A stretch of 4,768 bases of DNA, from assembly GCF_003334255.1 (NCBI RefSeq), contig NZ_QOWU01000107.1. One strand, written 5' to 3'. A model generated the notes under the pieces. That model searched no databases. It saw only the letters and a program-made list of their open reading frames with translations, and had not been told where the DNA came from. This document shows, in pieces, positions 1 through 4,768 of the stretch; position 1 is the stretch's first letter, and each line of letters opens with the position of its first letter. Made by a program: the position numbers and the translations under genes. This stretch comes from Escherichia coli. Lineage in GTDB: Bacteria; Pseudomonadota; Gammaproteobacteria; Enterobacterales; Enterobacteriaceae.

Positions 1-180
1 CACGCCTGAAGGGAAAGCTGCACGTTATCAGCAAGCGTTACACTCAGCGCATTGAGCGACATAATCTGAATCTGAGACAACATCTGGCAAGGCTGGGACG
101 GAAGTTACTGTCGTTCTCAAAATCGGTGGAGTTGCATGACAAGGTCATCGGGCATTATCTGAACATAAAACACTATCAGT
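1..180 (+). CDS. insB: IS1 transposase InsB, C-terminal fragment (5' end outside window)
   Basis: Open frame from nt 3 to TAA at 178-180 (59 codons), near-identical to the recalled IS1 InsB C-terminus. Two residues differ from the canonical copy as I recall it (KLL for KSL, KVIG for KIIG), suggesting an IS1 iso-form. Confidence 0.85.
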
Positions 181-197
181 AAGTTGGAGTCATTACC
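175..197. repeat. IS1 terminal inverted repeat (right end)
   Basis: 23-bp sequence atcagtaagttggagtcattacc matches the IS1 IR consensus. Confidence 0.85.
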
Positions 198-267: not shown

Positions 268-633
268 TGATCTTACCCAGCAATAGTGGACACGCGGCTA
301 AGTGAGTAAACTCTCAGTCAGAGGTGACTCACAAGACAAAACAGTTTCAACCAGTAAAAAAACGTAAACACCATTCGCATGAATTTCGTAGTTAAGATCT
401 GAAGCTTGCAGAATGCATCGGTATTACTGCCGGAGTCCGTGAACTTAGTCTGCATGAATCACCACAGCTTTACATCTGTCGCAGTAAACAGCAAAATCAG
501 CAAACTTACTTAATTATATCGAGTGCGATTACAATCGCTGGCGATGGTACAGTTGGTGTGGCGGTCTCAGTCCGGAACAATTTGAAAATCAGAATCTCAC
601 TTAAAACGGCATCCATTTTACAAAAGATGGCCG
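268..633 (+). mobile_element. IS3-like (IS3 family, IS3 group) remnant with a large internal deletion: left IR plus degenerate orfA 5' part joined to orfB 3' end plus degenerate right IR
   Basis: Sequence from 268 (tgatcttacccagcaatagtggacacgcggctaagtgagtaaactctcagtcagaggtgactcac) matches the recalled IS3 left end. Downstream sequence is diverged orfA-like coding (..KQQNQQ). At about 505-512 it switches to sequence encoding [31 protein letters not shown] (509-604), compared with IS3 InsF C-terminus [31 protein letters not shown]. The right IR region (about 596-633) is recognisable but degenerate. Confidence 0.75.
333..604 (+). pseudogene. Degenerate IS3-like transposase remnant: orfA 5' fragment (start codon ATG replaced by AAG, frameshifts, in-frame TAA) fused by deletion to the last 32 codons of orfB
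   Basis: AAG at 333-335 sits where IS3 orfA has ATG. Translation tracks IS3 OrfA (TKTVSTSKK.., [18 protein letters not shown]) only with indels and a stop. The orfB tail frame is intact from 509 to TAA at 602-604. Confidence 0.7.
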
Positions 634-902: not shown

Positions 903-943
903 TAGGCATGGTAAAATTATTGACTGAACCCTGGGGGAGAAAG

Positions 944-1201
944 ATGCACAGTGATTATTATAATATGGTTTTTGGTGAAAAATTGGCCAATATTTTATAT
1001 GAAGCTAACTCTCAATTTTTTTACGAGAGAAATGTCATAGAAGAGGCAGTCAACGCTTTATTCTGTGAGCGTGAAATAATAAACAACAAGAACATAATAA
1101 AGAAGCTGATGTTCTTTTTGTCAGATGTTAATCACACCAAGAAAGATGTTGTTCAGAGCGCACTTAATATTATCATTGACATTACATCAGGTGATATTTG
1201 A
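944..1201 (+). CDS. Hypothetical small acidic protein (85 aa), AT-rich, no family recognised
   Basis: The ORF runs 908-1201 in the track. I favour ATG 944 (MHSDYYNMVFGEKLANILYEANSQ...) because GGAG at 936-939 sits 4 nt upstream, whereas ATG 908 has only AGG at 1-nt spacing. The sequence is strongly AT-biased with asparagine/isoleucine/lysine-rich codon usage typical of horizontally acquired DNA. Confidence 0.45.
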   Translation: MHSDYYNMVFGEKLANILYEANSQFFYERNVIEEAVNALFCEREIINNKNIIKKLMFFLSDVNHTKKDVVQSALNIIIDITSGDI

Positions 1202-1478
1202 GATTTTACATAAAGGATAATCTCTCAAGGAGTCTTATCTGAAAACGAAATATATAGTCCCTCTCGTTTTGTAATATCGATTGGCTTTGTTGAATCGGTT
1301 ACGTACCCCGGAGCCGGTCATATTTTCAGGTAATACACACGCTTTCAGACATTTCGGCTTTCGTCATTTTGGTATCATGGGCATAGCTTCTGCTACCTGA
1401 CCATCATAATCACGCAGCTTCAGTGAAGCAGTGACCACCTGTTTAACCCGGTGTATCGTTATGATCTTATCCAGCAAT

Positions 1479-1669
1479 TGAACCGCCCCGGGTTTCCTGG
1501 AGAGTGTTTTATCTGTGAACTCAGGCTGCCAGATCATCGTTTCCGATGGAAGCATAATAAGCTTTTTCTGCTTCTGCCGGTGGGATATGGCCCTGCCTTT
1601 CCAGCAATCGTCGATTGTTATACCAGTCCACCCACGTGAGTGTGGTCAGCTCATCATACTGACACGTGC
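1479..1669 (-). mobile_element. IS629/IS1203-like (IS3 family, IS51 group) right-end remnant: terminal IR plus 3' end of orfB, truncated on the other side
   Basis: The plus strand from 1479 reads TGAACCGCCCCGGGTTTCCTGGAGAGTGTTTTATCTGTGAACTC, which matches the recalled IS629-type terminal repeat. The minus strand from 1669 to 1521 encodes ..YDELTTLTWVDWYNNRRLLERQGHIPPAEAEKAYYASIGNDDLAA*, an rve/DDE integrase-core C-terminus typical of this group. No upstream transposase sequence is recognisable beyond about 1669. Confidence 0.7.
1521..1669 (-). pseudogene. IS3-family (IS629-like) transposase OrfB, C-terminal 49-codon fragment
   Basis: Minus-strand frame is open from 1669 to TGA (complement of 1521-1523). 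It carries the WxxWYNxxRxxxxxGxxPPxExE..YY motif of IS3-family integrase cores. There is no start codon and it is truncated at the 5' side. Confidence 0.65.
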
Positions 1670-1800
1670 ATTACCCCTACCGCGATAATGCAACCGTACA
1701 ATATAGGGCGTTTCCTAAACGCAGCCCTCATCACTCCAATCCAACAAGACACAGCATTTTTGATCACGAAGAAAGACAAATAATTTCCGTAAATGTTTCC

Positions 1801-1818
1801 GTTGTTACAAATAACAAC
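1801..1818. promoter_or_regulatory. Candidate operator: inverted repeat GTTGTTA-caaa-TAACAAC upstream of the phytase-like gene
   Basis: Perfect 7-bp arms with a 4-bp spacer at 1801-1818, about 115 bp upstream of ATG 1934, preceded by direct repeats TTTCCGT at 1784-1790 and 1796-1802. No cognate regulator is encoded in the window. Confidence 0.25.
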
Positions 1819-1933
1819 AGTGTTTTACATTTCTTTGGCCTCAGGCCCGCGCATGTTGCCATTCGATGTCATTTTCCTGACTCGTTTCTTCTTTATGGTG
1901 TAGTGTGATCTTCACTTTATGGATGCTAACAAT

Positions 1934-3292
1934 ATGAAAAGAAAAATTATTCCCGTGCTAATCGGTTGTACGCTCTCTTTCTCTGCCCTGGCGGCACAAC
2001 CTACGGCTGAGCGCTATGTCGTCAGTTTTCCAGAAGGCACGCACGTGAACTACGCCGGCGCATTTGCCAGTGCATTCCCGAACGGCCTTCCGGTTGGGAT
2101 AGGTTCTGGCCTGCTGTTCACCGGTAAACAGGGCGATGCCCTGACATTCGCAACCATTACCGATCGCGGTCCGAACGCGGATTCACCGAAAGAGGGGAAA
2201 AACGAAACTAAAATTTTCGTTACGCCAGATTTCGCGCCGCTGCTGATGACGATTCGTGTACAAAACGGCAAAGCGGAGGCCATCGATCCCCGTCCTCTGC
2301 ATGACGATAAAGGCGCGATCAACGGTCTGCCGCTGGCAAGCGACGTGATTGGCTCCACCAATGAAGTGGCCTTCAGCGACACGTTACATAGACTGAAGGG
2401 GGATAATCGCGGGCTGGATACGGAAGGGATCACTCCGGATGGTAAAGGAGGTTACTGGCTGTGCGATGAGTATGGCCCGTTCCTGATTAACATCGACAGT
2501 AAAGGGAAAATCCTGGCAATCCACGGTCCGCAGGCGGCGGAAGGGGAAAAAGCGATTGCGGGCGGTTTGCCAAATATCCTCAAATGGCGTCAGGCGAACC
2601 GCGGCTTTGAAGGCCTCACCCGTATGCCGGACGGGCGTATTATTGTCGCCGTGCAAAGTACGCTGGATATCGACGCTAAGAGCAAGAAAAAGGCGCTGTT
2701 TACGCGTCTGGTGAGCTTCGATCCGGCAAGCGGAAAAACCGCGATGTACGGTTATCCTATCGACAGCGCGGCCTACAGCAAAAACAGCGACGCTAAAATC
2801 GGAGACATCGTGGCGCTCGATAACCAGCACATCCTGCTGATCGAACAGGGAAGAGATAAAAACAACAGAATGCGTAACCTGATTTACGAGGTCGATCTCA
2901 ATAAGGCGAGCGACCTGTCAGGCTTCGACAAGCCGGGTGAGTATCCGGAGTTTGATGATGAGAAAACCCTGTCACAGCGCGGCATTACCCTTGCGCAGAA
3001 AACGCAGGTTGTTGATCTGCGCTCCTTGGGCTGGCAGCAGGAGAAGGCTGAAGGGTTGGCGCTGATCGACAGCAAAACGCTGGCGGTGGCGAACGATAAC
3101 GACTTTGGCGTGAAGGTGGCGATGCAACATCCGGTCGAGGGCAAGACATTCAAGGATTATCGGGTGAACGCGGAAGGAAAGCTGACGCTTGACGACAAGC
3201 AGGTTGAAACGACCCTCAGAGTGAAGCCACTGGAGAAACCGGAGTCTGACAGTGAACTGTGGATTGTGACGCTGCCGGAAGCGTTGAAATAA
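1934..3292 (+). CDS. Secreted beta-propeller protein of the phytase-like / SdiA-regulated (YjiK-like) superfamily, often annotated 'esterase-like activity of phytase family protein'; 452 aa from ATG 1934
   Basis: Long ORF 1919-3292. I favour ATG 1934 because it gives a classic Sec signal peptide (MKRKIIPVLIGCTLSFSALA|AQPT) and has GGA 10 nt upstream; ATG 1919 is the in-frame alternative. Motifs GIGSGL...ITDRGPN, DTEGITPDGKGGYWLCDEYGP, NRGFEGL and NDNDFG match recalled signatures of Pfam phytase-like (PF13449) and SdiA-regulated beta-propellers. Codon usage is typical enterobacterial and GC is clearly higher than in the AT-rich segment upstream. Confidence 0.9.
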   Translation: MKRKIIPVLIGCTLSFSALAAQPTAERYVVSFPEGTHVNYAGAFASAFPNGLPVGIGSGLLFTGKQGDALTFATITDRGPNADSPKEGKNETKIFVTPDFAPLLMTIRVQNGKAEAIDPRPLHDDKGAINGLPLASDVIGSTNEVAFSDTLHRLKGDNRGLDTEGITPDGKGGYWLCDEYGPFLINIDSKGKILAIHGPQAAEGEKAIAGGLPNILKWRQANRGFEGLTRMPDGRIIVAVQSTLDIDAKSKKKALFTRLVSFDPASGKTAMYGYPIDSAAYSKNSDAKIGDIVALDNQHILLIEQGRDKNNRMRNLIYEVDLNKASDLSGFDKPGEYPEFDDEKTLSQRGITLAQKTQVVDLRSLGWQQEKAEGLALIDSKTLAVANDNDFGVKVAMQHPVEGKTFKDYRVNAEGKLTLDDKQVETTLRVKPLEKPESDSELWIVTLPEALK

Positions 3293-3530
3293 GTTTATAA
3301 GGTACGGACAGCAGTATCGCTTAGTTTTTCAAATTCATGTATGTGAACAATATTGGGGTTCCGGCGTAGACCCCCAATGAAAGCGTCACCACGTGAAAAC
3401 ATGCCTGCACGGTTTACACGTCATCCCATGGTGGCAGCCGGTTAACTTTCCTGCTACACCAGTGGAAAAAGGCCATAAGCAGTCCGAACAAAAGTAAGCG
3501 TACAGCGAGGGCCGTATTGACGGGGATGTG

Positions 3531-4768
3531 TTATTCAGCTGGCAGTGCTATGCGCCACGGAAGCAGTTCGCTGACCCGGTTGACCGGCCAGTCTGCTATG
3601 ACGCCAAGCACATGGCGAAGGTAGCTTTCTGGATCCACGTCATTCAGTTTGCACGTCCCGATCAGGCTGTACAGTAGCGCTCCCCGCTCACCACCATGGC
3701 CAGAGCCGAAGAACAGGGTCTTCATCTTTTCACGCAACCAGCTTTCCAGGGATTTCAACAGCGGTTTCGTTTTTCGCTGACGTTCAGCAAGCCGCTGCTA
3801 TGCCGGCATTCCCCTTATATCCGCCTCTATGGCGTACAACTGACCGATCTGCTCCAGGGCTTCTTCCGTCAGTGCTGACGGGATGCGGACGTGCATATCG
3901 TGGATCTTTCGGCGGGCATGAGCCCAGCAGGCAGCTTCCGTTATCCCACCATTGCGATACAGCTCGTTGAACCCGGCGTACGCATCCGCTTGCAGCACAC
4001 CGCTGAAGCAAGCAAGATGAGTCTGCGGATGGATGCCTTTTCTGTCCGGGCTGTAAGCGAACCTCACTGCAGGTGCCAACGCTGACCCGGCATTGCGGTC
4101 ATCACGAACATACGCCCACAACCGCCCGGTCTTCGTCTTCTTATTACCCGGCAGCAGTACCTGGACCGGGGTATCATCGGCATGGAGTTTGCCGTCAGTC
4201 ATGACATCGCCATGAAGCGCCTCTTCCAGCGGAGACAGCAGCCGGCAGCATGCATCCACCCAGCCCGACAGCAGTGAACGGCTCAGCTCCACACCTTGCC
4301 GGTCGTATATTTCTGACTGGCGATACAGCGGGGTGTGCTCTGCATACTTCGAGGTCAGCACGCGGGCCAGCAGCCCCGGTCCGGCGATACCCCGCTCGAT
4401 GGGCCGCGAAGGTGCAGGTGCCTGCACGATGGCATCGCACTGAGTACAGGCATGTTTTTCCCGTACCGTCCGGATAACCCGGAAGGCGCTACGCATCAAC
4501 TCCAGCTGTTCGGCGGTATCCTCGCCCAGATAGCTCAGTGAACCGCCGCAGTTCGGGCAGCACGGCGCCGCAGGCAACAGCCGCTTTTCGTCACGGGGTA
4601 GTGATTCAGGGAACGGCTTACGGGGGCGGGTCTGACGCAACGGACGCTGTACTGCCGGGTCATACACCCTACCAGTCAGCGTATCGCTCTCTATCGCTCT
4701 CTTTCTGAAGCCGGTTCAGATCGGCTTCCATTTGTGCGATACGGCGGGAGACTTTTTCGGAACGACTG
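3531..4768 (-). pseudogene. tnpC: IS66-family transposase (TnpC/orf3) pseudogene: N-terminal frameshift from a 10-bp tandem duplication, in-frame TAG, and a probable in-frame internal deletion
   Basis: Minus-strand ORF 4667-3798 (..[39 protein letters not shown]..) ends at TAG (complement of 3798-3800). The same frame continues [71 protein letters not shown] to 3531. Upstream of 4667 the conserved N-terminal sequence (..[25 protein letters not shown]) is in a different frame, offset by the duplication at 4682-4701. Confidence 0.85.
4682..4701. repeat. Perfect 10-bp tandem direct duplication (tatcgctctc x2) inside the IS66 transposase 5' region
   Basis: Read directly: 4682-4691 and 4692-4701 are identical. 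The unit is not a multiple of 3, so it shifts the frame. Removing one copy joins ..LQKESD to [17 protein letters not shown].. in one frame. Confidence 0.9.

Follow-up and report, generated by a model that had tools for sequence, protein, structure and literature searches.

What is a phytase-like gene doing amid the insertion sequence (IS) debris of an Escherichia coli genomic island, where did it come from, and what controls it? These questions are raised by a 4,768-nucleotide stretch of E. coli DNA (the window), the features of which are collected in Table 1. Some two-fifths of complete E. coli genomes carry the gene, ExPEC reference strains among them, as does the SRL island of Shigella, and the PhoB-type promoter of its relatives leads to a testable hypothesis, namely that the product is a periplasmic phosphate-scavenging hydrolase. 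Both the gene and its island setting had been recorded before, and a palindrome that a preliminary description pointed out upstream of the gene is probably not its operator.

Table 1. Features of the window, with coordinates, strand and the basis or detail of each assignment.
Feature	Position	Strand	Basis or detail
IS1F 3' end, pseudogene with internal stop	1..182	+	RefSeq annotation, identical S88 region
IS5/IS1182-family transposase fragment, remnant	1325..1455	-	RefSeq annotation
IS3-family (IS1203/IS629-like) terminal remnant	1479..1652	-	Annotation; transposase C-terminal fragment 1520-1651
Filler DNA between IS remnant and Enterobacter-type segment	1653..1778		blastn boundaries
Captured Enterobacter-type segment	1779..~3297	+	155 bp promoter plus CDS, ends at stop codon; blastn
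Direct repeat TTTCCGT-N5-TTTCCGT	1784..1802 (1784-1790/1796-1802)	+	Exact
Inverted repeat 7-4-7, GTTGTTA-CAAA-TAACAAC	1801..1818 (arms 1801-1807/1812-1818)		Exact
Degenerate Pho box, ATGTCATTTTCCTGACTC(G)	1866..1884	+	12/18 matches to CTGTCATAWAWCTGTCAY; 6.1 bits
Candidate -10 hexamer, TATGGT	1894..1899	+	Starts 10 bp after Pho box; column counts in 71 orthologs
Phytase-like CDS	1934..3292	+	452 aa, intact; start ATG 1934 conserved in relatives, RefSeq-annotated
Predicted signal peptide	~1934-1993/1996	+	Mature beta-propeller from about residue 21-23
DUF6404-family gene remnant, plasmid-type DNA	3376..3493	-	Annotated fragment 3413-3490; plasmid matches span 3376-3493 only
ISEc8-type IS66-family right end	3494..4768	-	Annotation; broken tnpC

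The open reading frame as listed spans 1919..3292 on the plus strand (457 aa), with an in-frame ATG at 1919 upstream of the annotated start. This codon is CTG in 10 of 11 Enterobacter/Lelliottia alignment rows, with ATG retained at the position in E. cloacae DSM 26481 and Pseudenterobacter, and 1919 is unlikely to be the start since most Enterobacter species carry CTG there. The predicted signal peptide, MKRKIIPVLIGCTLSFSALA, followed by AQP, combines a basic n-region and a hydrophobic core with a cleavage motif of the A-x-A type, a twin-arginine motif being absent, and the protein is predicted to be exported by a Sec-type route. Cys12 of the signal peptide is not kept among orthologs, making cleavage by signal peptidase I more likely than lipoprotein processing. 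The large majority of the copies sampled keep the reading frame intact, with a full signal peptide; truncated variants of the protein also occur in databases. A consensus sigma-70 scan upstream of the gene found no promoter, no convincing terminator was found after its stop codon, and an Rfam search of the window (E ≤ 0.1) returned zero matches.

The protein matches Pfam PF13449 (‘Phytase-like’, ‘esterase-like activity of phytase’) with an E-value of 7.2e-43 over residues 55–391, covering model positions 4–284 of 284. Its AlphaFold2 model is all-beta with a mean pLDDT of 95.5, low pLDDT being confined to residues 1–20, and the body of the protein is confidently predicted to be a beta-propeller. 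Together with the signal sequence, these results agree with the preliminary description of a signal-peptide-bearing phytase-like beta-propeller, the broader placement of which in a phytase-like or SdiA-regulated superfamily stood for PF13449 and fell for PF06977 (SdiA-regulated, the YjiK family), which gave no HMM match. Neither the beta-propeller phytases (PF02333) nor PhoX (PF05787) provided an HMM match or the closest fold, with structure comparison placing YjiK and glutaminyl cyclases as the top neighbours and a Ca2+-activated nucleotidase also among the top folds. A search of the PDB with the single protein sequence returned nothing, and a family profile retrieved only generic NHL-blade similarity, Drp35 lactonase and, weakly, YjiK. 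There was no match in NCBIfam or PADLOC, and Foldseek against AFDB50 returned solely unannotated ‘phytase-like’ proteins. The superfamily had been called poorly characterised, and indeed no characterised relative was found in the PDB, NCBIfam, AFDB50 or the literature searched. The family conserves a series of acidic motifs (DRGPN, LDxEG, DEYGP, NRGFEG, EQG, AEG and NDNDF), and in multidomain homologs the domain is fused to 5'-nucleotidase C-terminal, metallophosphoesterase and ParB-like nuclease domains; the names on large multidomain homologs were searched for a link to PhoAaty, and none was found. An identity with the ShiA/SisA inflammation suppressors, as the shiA-like sisA or sisB, was dropped, with the sisA qPCR primer (PMC2978726) unmatched in the window at ≤3 mismatches; a single primer is a weak test, but no other connection to these genes emerged.

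The window matches E. coli chromosomes at 100% within the leuX island adjoining fecIRABCDE, where the order in S88 is fec, IS1, further genes, the phytase-like gene, IS66, a Gp2-like gene, Hha, AlpA, a GTPase and Ag43. An earlier source, Luck et al. 2001, reportedly contains orf34 of the SRL pathogenicity island of Shigella flexneri. The phytase-like gene has already been published as orf34 of this island (PMC6980539, Table 2), where it receives an annotation mention only, and the S88 gene order corresponds to that of orf34–orf47. Orf34 is the same gene, followed, as in S88, by IS66 (orf35–37), an inovirus Gp2-like gene, Hha, AlpA, a GTPase and Ag43, with no substantive difference between the two, such that the window presents the E. 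coli version of the module. The gene is accessory, as had been proposed, with its promoter region present in 2263 of 5426 complete E. coli genomes (~42%) and the gene itself on at least 66 Escherichia plasmids as well. Of the complete E. coli genomes, 2248 contain the left junction and 2163 the right one (96–99% of the 2263 carriers), all E. coli-type copies are at least 99% identical, and the same micro-context was found on a plasmid and at a second chromosomal site. As nearly all carriers share both junctions, the module was captured once, and islands and plasmids later distributed it among E. coli, Shigella, E. albertii and E. fergusonii.

The gene does lie wedged between IS remnants, as first described, with annotation and junction blastn placing an IS3-family remnant on the left and an IS66-family end on the right. 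On its left the module is bounded by the IS1F piece, which adjoins fecI in the host island. The IS629-like piece, originally drawn as 1479–1669, keeps its identity as IS1203/IS629-like, whereas its right limit lies at ~1652, some 17 nt short of that claim; within the junction query, IS3/IS1203 copies elsewhere match window positions 1600–1652 only. Bases 1675–1731 of the adjacent filler resemble scrap on an enterotoxigenic E. coli (ETEC) contig. On the right, IS66-family homology begins exactly at 3494, and tnpC is frameshifted with an internal stop, leaving ORFs at 3531–3758 and 3798–4667. The proposal that the gene is mobilisable by its flanking IS elements is not supported, as the flanks are truncated or frameshifted, belong to different families, and keep the same junctions in nearly all carriers; no two intact IS of the same family bracket the gene in the window as a composite transposon would. 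These remnant flanks and shared junctions imply that the gene is carried along passively, as part of a larger fec/SRL-type island or plasmid segment, and it is a passenger of the fec/SRL-type genomic island. On plasmid pPSJ-14_2 the module is bracketed by intact IS1 copies, and IS1-mediated movement is possible there.

Homology of the donor type is restricted to 1779–~3297. The longest blastn alignments to the Enterobacter cloacae complex start at 1779 and end at 3292–3298, with DNA identities of 83–86.5% to the loci of this complex (L018–L029) and protein identities of 89–91% to the homologues. The gene is under purifying selection, with a dN/dS of ~0.09 (range 0.08–0.11). In Enterobacter the locus is chromosomal and without IS flanks, lying between yfaZ-like or yjiN and yjiA-yjiX-cstA. 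A seemingly closer donor (P0002, 94% identity) was rejected as an island variant with IS66 downstream, and a further candidate (P0005, 86%) is another enterobacterial chromosome with the gene between yjiN and yjiA; among the sampled species, no donor nearer than ~86.5% DNA identity was found. Separately, ETEC contigs carrying enterotoxin genes (LT-II and STb) hold an independent paralog with 71% identity and a Pho box of 14.3 bits.

Upstream of the orthologs, the better conserved regulatory signal is a candidate Pho box rather than the palindrome. Counting matches to the 18-position consensus CTGTCATAWAWCTGTCAY, a box with at least 13 matches lies 60–82 nt from the ATG in the orthologs of 71 of 78 species, compared with 0.5% of shuffles, with the relatives that carry it spanning about 30 genera of Enterobacterales and a few other Proteobacteria. 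Scored with a position weight matrix (PWM) built from 59 ChIP-seq PhoB sites (PMC9934606), the boxes of the orthologs reach a median of 15.2 bits, compared with 15.0 for the ChIP-bound sites. The -10 hexamer is fixed 10 bp after the box, with T (71), A (69) and the final T (54) conserved across the 71 orthologs. The Enterobacter box TGTCATTTTTCTGACACG scores 14.6 bits and differs at 2 of 18 positions from TGTCATCTTTCTGACACC, the proven PhoB site of ugpB (PMC9934606). Like ugpB and the E. coli Pho regulon, the ortholog promoters have two 11-bp-phased TGTCA-type half-sites replacing the -35 element, 10 bp before the -10. The Enterobacter-type box is near-palindromic, scoring 15.4 bits on the minus strand, and its orientation is set by the other genera only. 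Since the Pho box is conserved in 71 of 78 species, the phytase-like family is probably switched on by PhoB~P when cells are starved of phosphate.

The island copy of E. coli retains an unaltered first half-site, TGTCAT, and its second half-site reads CTGACTC, compared with CTGACAC or CTGTCAT in relatives. Two bases are derived, C1876 (T>C) and T1882 (A>T), the latter replacing A16, a base that all 59 bound sites and 70 of the 71 orthologs share; the E. coli copy thus differs from ugpB-type PhoB promoters in having T for an invariant A in the second half-site. Its score falls under those of all 59 ChIP-bound sites and is no better than that of ~10% of random 200-nt stretches, with the minus-strand reading giving 11.3 bits. 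The same mutant box is present in all 7 Escherichia copies aligned. No -35 element precedes TATGGT, an absence expected for a PhoB-type promoter. Taken alone, the window sequence gives no sign of PhoB control; judged against the relatives, control of the E. coli allele by PhoB has probably been weakened or lost, and this allele may be poorly or differently expressed.

The explanation we favour, and regard as fairly likely, combines a single Enterobacter-type capture, a family of PhoB-activated periplasmic phosphate-scavenging hydrolases, and a Pho box that has decayed in E. coli. A 1.5-kb piece of Enterobacter-like chromosome, comprising a promoter and one gene, was captured once amid IS debris and then spread on islands and plasmids to Shigella and the Escherichia species named above. 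The ancestral promoter would have been activated by PhoB~P during phosphate starvation, with the periplasmic enzyme hydrolysing an organic phosphoester to free its phosphate, most likely by means of a divalent metal (Ca2+, for instance), and with nucleotides, phosphodiesters or phytate as candidate substrates. The substitutions at 1876 and 1882 would then cripple the promoter-proximal half-site in the E. coli island allele. A phosphate-scavenging role for the family is probable on the evidence of its promoters and domain fusions, and independent support for the link to Pho comes from Nodularia, where a distant PF13449-annotated gene, termed an ‘atypical alkaline phosphatase’, is among those strongly induced by P limitation (log2FC 5.5; PMC9846622). 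In the literature the phytase-like gene and PF13449 otherwise appear in annotation mentions only, and no transcriptome or PhoB-binding reports on this gene were found for any organism. A wider proposal, which we put forward only tentatively, is that stand-alone periplasmic PF13449 propellers are unrecognised, widely conserved PhoB-controlled phosphate scavengers of Enterobacterales resembling PhoX, Psip1 and PhoAaty, with the E. coli/Shigella copy borne on a pathogenicity island and uncoupled by point mutation of its Pho box, and a second paralog travelling with the LT-II/STb genes of ETEC.

Three other explanations bear on parts of this account. The palindrome at 1801–1818 and the TTTCCGT repeats had been taken to suggest dedicated control by a regulator encoded elsewhere, which would be a dimeric protein with the palindrome as its operator. 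Both repeat types are present between 1784 and 1818 exactly as described, all 7 of the E. coli-type copies aligned retain the palindrome, and both repeats lie within a block (~1779–1842) that is better conserved within the Enterobacter complex than the spacer separating it from the Pho box. The repeats are not statistically unusual, however, as among 2000 dinucleotide shuffles of 1670–1933, perfect 7-nt inverted repeats with loops of ≤10 nt arose one or more times in 16%, and direct repeats of this kind in 15%. Furthermore, the homologous bases in the closest Enterobacter orthologs (e.g. GTTGTCACAGATAAAGAC) form no palindrome, and dyad symmetry is therefore not what is conserved; Enterobacter bears TTTCCAA...TTTCAG at the position of the direct repeat, and among E. 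coli copies two plasmid variants have lost one TTTCCGT, and strain 1303 has one altered. The block is also missing upstream of orthologs beyond the Enterobacter complex, where the Pho box is retained, and the palindrome is centred ~125 nt upstream of the ATG, remote from the candidate -10. A dedicated operator here is accordingly very improbable. A second Pho box inside the block was likewise rejected, with no PWM match of ≥7 bits in the E. coli copy and a single marginal match (8.2 bits, L028) among 11 Enterobacter-complex loci.

It is unlikely, though less so than a dedicated operator, that the gene is merely decaying in E. coli as a hitch-hiker that owes its spread solely to linkage with the fec iron-uptake island, its damaged Pho box leaving it essentially silent and without any contribution to fitness. 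In favour of this reading, the box scores under every bound site and has lost an invariant base, the native terminator and all DNA past the stop codon were left behind at capture, the neighbours are IS debris and pseudogenes, and truncated protein variants are on record; with copies so nearly identical, the intact reading frame is a product of recent spread and no sign of selection within E. coli. Against this, most sampled copies do keep that frame with a complete signal peptide, the intact first half-site and -10 and the minus-strand score leave some PhoB binding possible, and retention of the ETEC paralog with its strong box suggests a function useful to E. coli. It is more improbable still that the protein is a propeller with no phosphoesterase activity, acting for instance as lactonase or cyclase or serving in binding or adhesion (cf. 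NHL, SGL and YjiK), and that the Pho-box-like motif serves another regulator. YjiK and the glutaminyl cyclases are indeed the nearest folds, the profile search of the PDB yields nothing beyond NHL blades and Drp35 lactonase of note, and the Pfam name is a guess with no measured activity behind it, but the motif fits the PhoB matrix as genuine sites do, with strict PhoB-type spacing to the -10, and the fusions to nucleotidase, metallophosphoesterase and nuclease domains, the strong P-limitation response of the cyanobacterial family member and the presence of a Ca2+-activated nucleotidase among the top folds all favour a phosphoesterase.

Under the favoured explanation of a captured, PhoB-activated scavenger with a decayed box, the conserved PhoB-type promoter gives an uncharacterised Pfam family a likely physiological role, and the damaged Pho box provides a natural experiment on the control region of a regulon member after horizontal transfer. 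Among known systems, the phytase-like protein exceeds the YjiK domain (PDB 3QQZ; PF06977) by ~200 residues and lacks the PF06977 match, and it resembles the human soluble calcium-activated nucleotidase SCAN-1 (PDB 2H2N) in fold, with only 13% sequence identity. In the beta-propeller alkaline phosphatases PhoX and Psip1 and the beta-propeller phytases, acidic residues bind Ca2+, and Fe as well in PhoX and Psip1 (PMC11098088). These three are likewise exported beta-propellers, scavenging phosphate under P limitation as the phytase-like family probably does.

The phytase-like ORF is intact and encodes 452 aa from ATG 1934, a codon kept in every ortholog aligned, with the upstream ATG 1919 replaced by CTG in 10 of 11 aligned Enterobacter/Lelliottia sequences; on these alignments, ATG 1934 is the true start. 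The N-terminus, MKRKIIPVLIGCTLSFSALA ahead of AQP, carries the proposed signal peptide, of ordinary Sec type and ending in an A-x-A cleavage motif, and low model confidence in the predicted structure is confined to residues 1–20. Lipoprotein processing is unlikely, as Cys12 is not conserved among orthologs. The Pfam search returned PF13449 as its one match (E 7e-43), with the HMM search placing the protein outside PF06977, PF02333, and PF05787. Identity with sisA or shiA is unlikely: the published sisA qPCR primer (PMC2978726) finds no counterpart in the window at up to 3 mismatches, although this is a weak test. The dN/dS against Enterobacter orthologs (0.08–0.11) indicates purifying selection on the protein over the E. 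coli–Enterobacter divergence. The gene-level interpretation of the preliminary description is right, and its sequence observations are confirmed.

Coordinates of features in the window
Feature	Position	Strand	Content
Presumed canonical IS3 left end	270-335		TGATCTTACCCAGCAATAGTGGACACGCGGCTAAGTGAGTAAACTCTCAGTCAGAGGTGACTCAC
Frameshifted IS3 fragments	up to ~604
YmgB/AriR-family ORF	908-1201	+	97 aa
Left junction	1600-1830
End of IS1203/IS629-type homology	~1652
Donor-type homology	1779 (longest alignments) to 3292-3298
60-nt conserved block	~1779-1842
Palindrome	1801-1818
Overlapping PWM matches	1854-1882	-	AGTCAGGAAAATGACATC, TGACATCGAATGGCAACA
Degenerate Pho box	1867-1884	+	TGTCATTTTCCTGACTCG
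Candidate -10 hexamer	1894-1899	+	TATGGT
Phytase-like gene	1934-3292	+	452 aa
Right junction	3240-3560
Start of ISEc8 (IS66 family)	3494
tnpC of ISEc8/IS66-family element	3531-4667	-	75-aa + 289-aa ORFs

The first cross-genus alignment revealed one conserved non-coding block near the start codon, readable as a Pho box, the binding motif of PhoB. Of 80 loci collected (one genome per species), 78 were usable, and their 200-nt upstream regions were scanned. In 71 of the 78 (91%), CTGTCATAWAWCTGTCAY is matched at 13 or more of its 18 positions at 60–82 nt before the ATG, compared with only 0.5% of shuffled sequences. The aligned sites read nTGTCAT-N4-CTG(T/A)CA(Y), and exactly 10 bp past them lies a −10 hexamer, with T in 71/71, A in 69/71, and a final T in 54/71. 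PhoB-activated promoters, that of phoA among them, are built in this way. That the box stands at a strict distance from the core promoter elements has been emphasised (PMC9934606). On a PWM built from 59 E. coli PhoB sites mapped by ChIP-seq (PMC9934606 Table 1), which score 6.6–23.4 bits (median 15.0), the median for ortholog boxes is 15.2 bits, and 92% of them reach 8 bits or more when scored at the fixed position. The Enterobacter box, TGTCATTTTTCTGACACG, agrees at all but two positions with the ugpB site (TGTCATCTTTCTGACACC), which depends strongly on PhoB. This Enterobacter box is also close to a palindrome, with 14.6 bits on the plus strand and 15.4 on the minus strand. Pho boxes also occur in Wohlfahrtiimonas, Tolumonas, and a Neisseriaceae MAG. 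We infer from these promoter sequences that the gene family belongs to the Pho regulon.

The E. coli box scores 6.1 bits, lower than any of the 59 bound sites and no better than what roughly 10% of random 200-nt stretches attain. The drop is attributable to two derived bases, C1876 in the spacer and T1882, which replaces an A otherwise found in 59/59 bound sites and 70/71 orthologs; the mutant box is identical in 7/7 Escherichia-type copies aligned. The E. coli copy keeps TGTCAT as its first half-site, along with the 10-bp spacer and the −10 hexamer, and the minus-strand reading of the site reaches 11.3 bits. Weighing the score drop and derived bases together with the remaining half-site and minus-strand score, PhoB control of the E. 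coli copy has probably been weakened or lost. The two overlapping minus-strand PWM matches lie exactly 11 bp apart (11.3 and 8.0 bits respectively), giving three half-sites that are in phase but in the “wrong” orientation.

A different control site, a 7-4-7 palindrome flanked by TTTCCGT direct repeats, had been put forward as an operator candidate. As sequence features both are exact, but when the 264-nt upstream region is dinucleotide-shuffled, 16% of the shuffles contain a 7-nt perfect inverted repeat with a short loop and 15% a comparable direct repeat, which is chance level. Moreover, the homologous bases in the Enterobacter complex form no palindrome (for example GTTGTCACAGATAAAGAC), an 11-bp deletion removes one TTTCCGT copy in two Escherichia plasmid variants, and the second copy has a 1-bp deletion in strain 1303; an operator at the palindrome is thus improbable. 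The surrounding conserved block may nevertheless contain some element of the donor locus, since it is visibly better conserved among Enterobacter species than the spacer after it, although dyad symmetry is not its conserved property and it is absent outside the Enterobacter clade. This block, which holds both repeats, corresponds to ~2339–2400 of the Enterobacter loci L018–L028, with the pattern TAATAATTTCC...TGTTTC...TGTCAC...TTTACATTTCT conserved across Enterobacter-complex species, and could be an upstream site or part of the divergent yfaZ-like gene. The ~45 nt from the block to the Pho box are almost random in the Enterobacter complex, and ~18 bp directly after it in Enterobacter are missing from the E. 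coli copy.

In other genera (the Enterobacter cloacae complex, Lelliottia, Pluralibacter, Pantoea, Serratia, and others) the ortholog is an unremarkable chromosomal, monocistronic gene whose neighbours vary; in Enterobacter-like genomes it is flanked by yfaZ-like or yjiN and by yjiA-yjiX-cstA, without IS nearby. From the limits of homology to Enterobacter-type loci (83–86.5% DNA and 89–91% protein identity), with no donor-type homology past the stop codon, the E. coli piece is 1.5 kb, comprising a 155-bp promoter and the gene. The promoter region is present in 2263/5426 complete E. coli genomes, with identity of 99% or more in 2219/2273 matching records; the left and right junctions are common to 2248 and 2163 genomes respectively, and in PLSDB the gene is found on about 66 Escherichia plasmids. 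The shared junctions, and the identical micro-context on plasmid pPSJ-14_2 and at another chromosomal site in strain 1303, indicate a single capture followed by passive spread within a larger mobile segment. A 2971-bp contig of an “uncultured Ruminococcaceae” MAG (L017) matches the E. coli module at 99.6% identity, IS3-family remnant included, and almost certainly reflects contamination during binning; its −10 reads TAGGGT versus TATGGT.

The IS boundaries agree within a few bases with those first proposed, the right one exactly, and the description of the gene as IS cargo is right in outline; its mobilisability was overstated, with the flanking remnants being truncated or frameshifted and of different families, which indicates that they are unable to move the gene themselves. 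The ISEc8/IS66-family element is dead in the window, its tnpC split by a frameshift and internal stop as annotated in S88; some plasmid copies have a shorter tnpC annotated as intact. On pPSJ-14_2 (5860–10830), two intact IS1 copies bracket the module (IS5 remnant, IS3 remnant, gene, DUF6404 remnant, partial IS66) in what looks like an IS1 composite transposon, which could provide a route of chromosome–plasmid transfer.

The window is 100% identical to many E. coli chromosomes, including S88, ATCC 11775, and E110019. In S88 it forms part of the leuX-tRNA genomic island and adjoins fecIRABCDE directly (RefSeq annotation), in the order IS1F, IS3-family scraps, YmgB/AriR-family ORF, IS5 fragment, and IS3-family fragment, with Gp2-like, Hha, AlpA, GTPase, and Ag43 genes farther along. 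This order matches orf34–orf47 of the Shigella flexneri SRL pathogenicity island, and orf34 has been re-annotated as the same protein (99.78% identity; PMC6980539 Table 2), so the gene and its island context are already on record, as annotation only. The intact ORF annotated “biofilm development regulator YmgB/AriR family protein”, between IS3 and IS5 remnants, has no NCBIfam match and a weak, meaningless PADLOC match, and is absent from the plasmid version of the module. What we take, from the annotation, to be the IS3 left end opens another decayed IS3 remnant.

Four ETEC contigs (L007–L010) each carry a second PF13449 paralog, P0078 (6001–7353; 450 aa, 71% identical), acquired independently of the island copy. 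It lies ~2 kb from the STb enterotoxin gene and ~5 kb from the LT-II A/B genes, upstream of a PhoPQ-related protein gene, and its own Pho box, ATTCATATATCTGAAACA, scores 14.3 bits with TAAAAT 10 bp after.

Over 62 diverse homologs, the near-invariant residues are mostly acidic or in blade-repeating motifs (D77-R-G-x-N81, D162/E164, E179-Y, N222-x-G-x-E226, E304-Q-G, E373-G, D388-x-D390-F), a pattern that would fit a metal-binding propeller centre. In larger homologs the domain is fused to 5'-nucleotidase C-terminal, metallophosphoesterase, and ParB-like nuclease domains, and in Nodularia a PF13449-annotated “atypical alkaline phosphatase” gene is ~45-fold up under P limitation (PMC9846622). 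Taken together with the Pho box and Sec signal, these point to a periplasmic, probably Ca2+-dependent phosphoesterase for phosphate scavenging as the best reading, each step from fold to chemistry being predicted. The gene is already catalogued; what is added is a Pho-box footprint spanning some 30 genera, and the decay of that box in the island allele. The protein, a probable new member of a familiar type of system, resembles PhoX or Psip1 in predicted role; the tests run found no relatedness to either.
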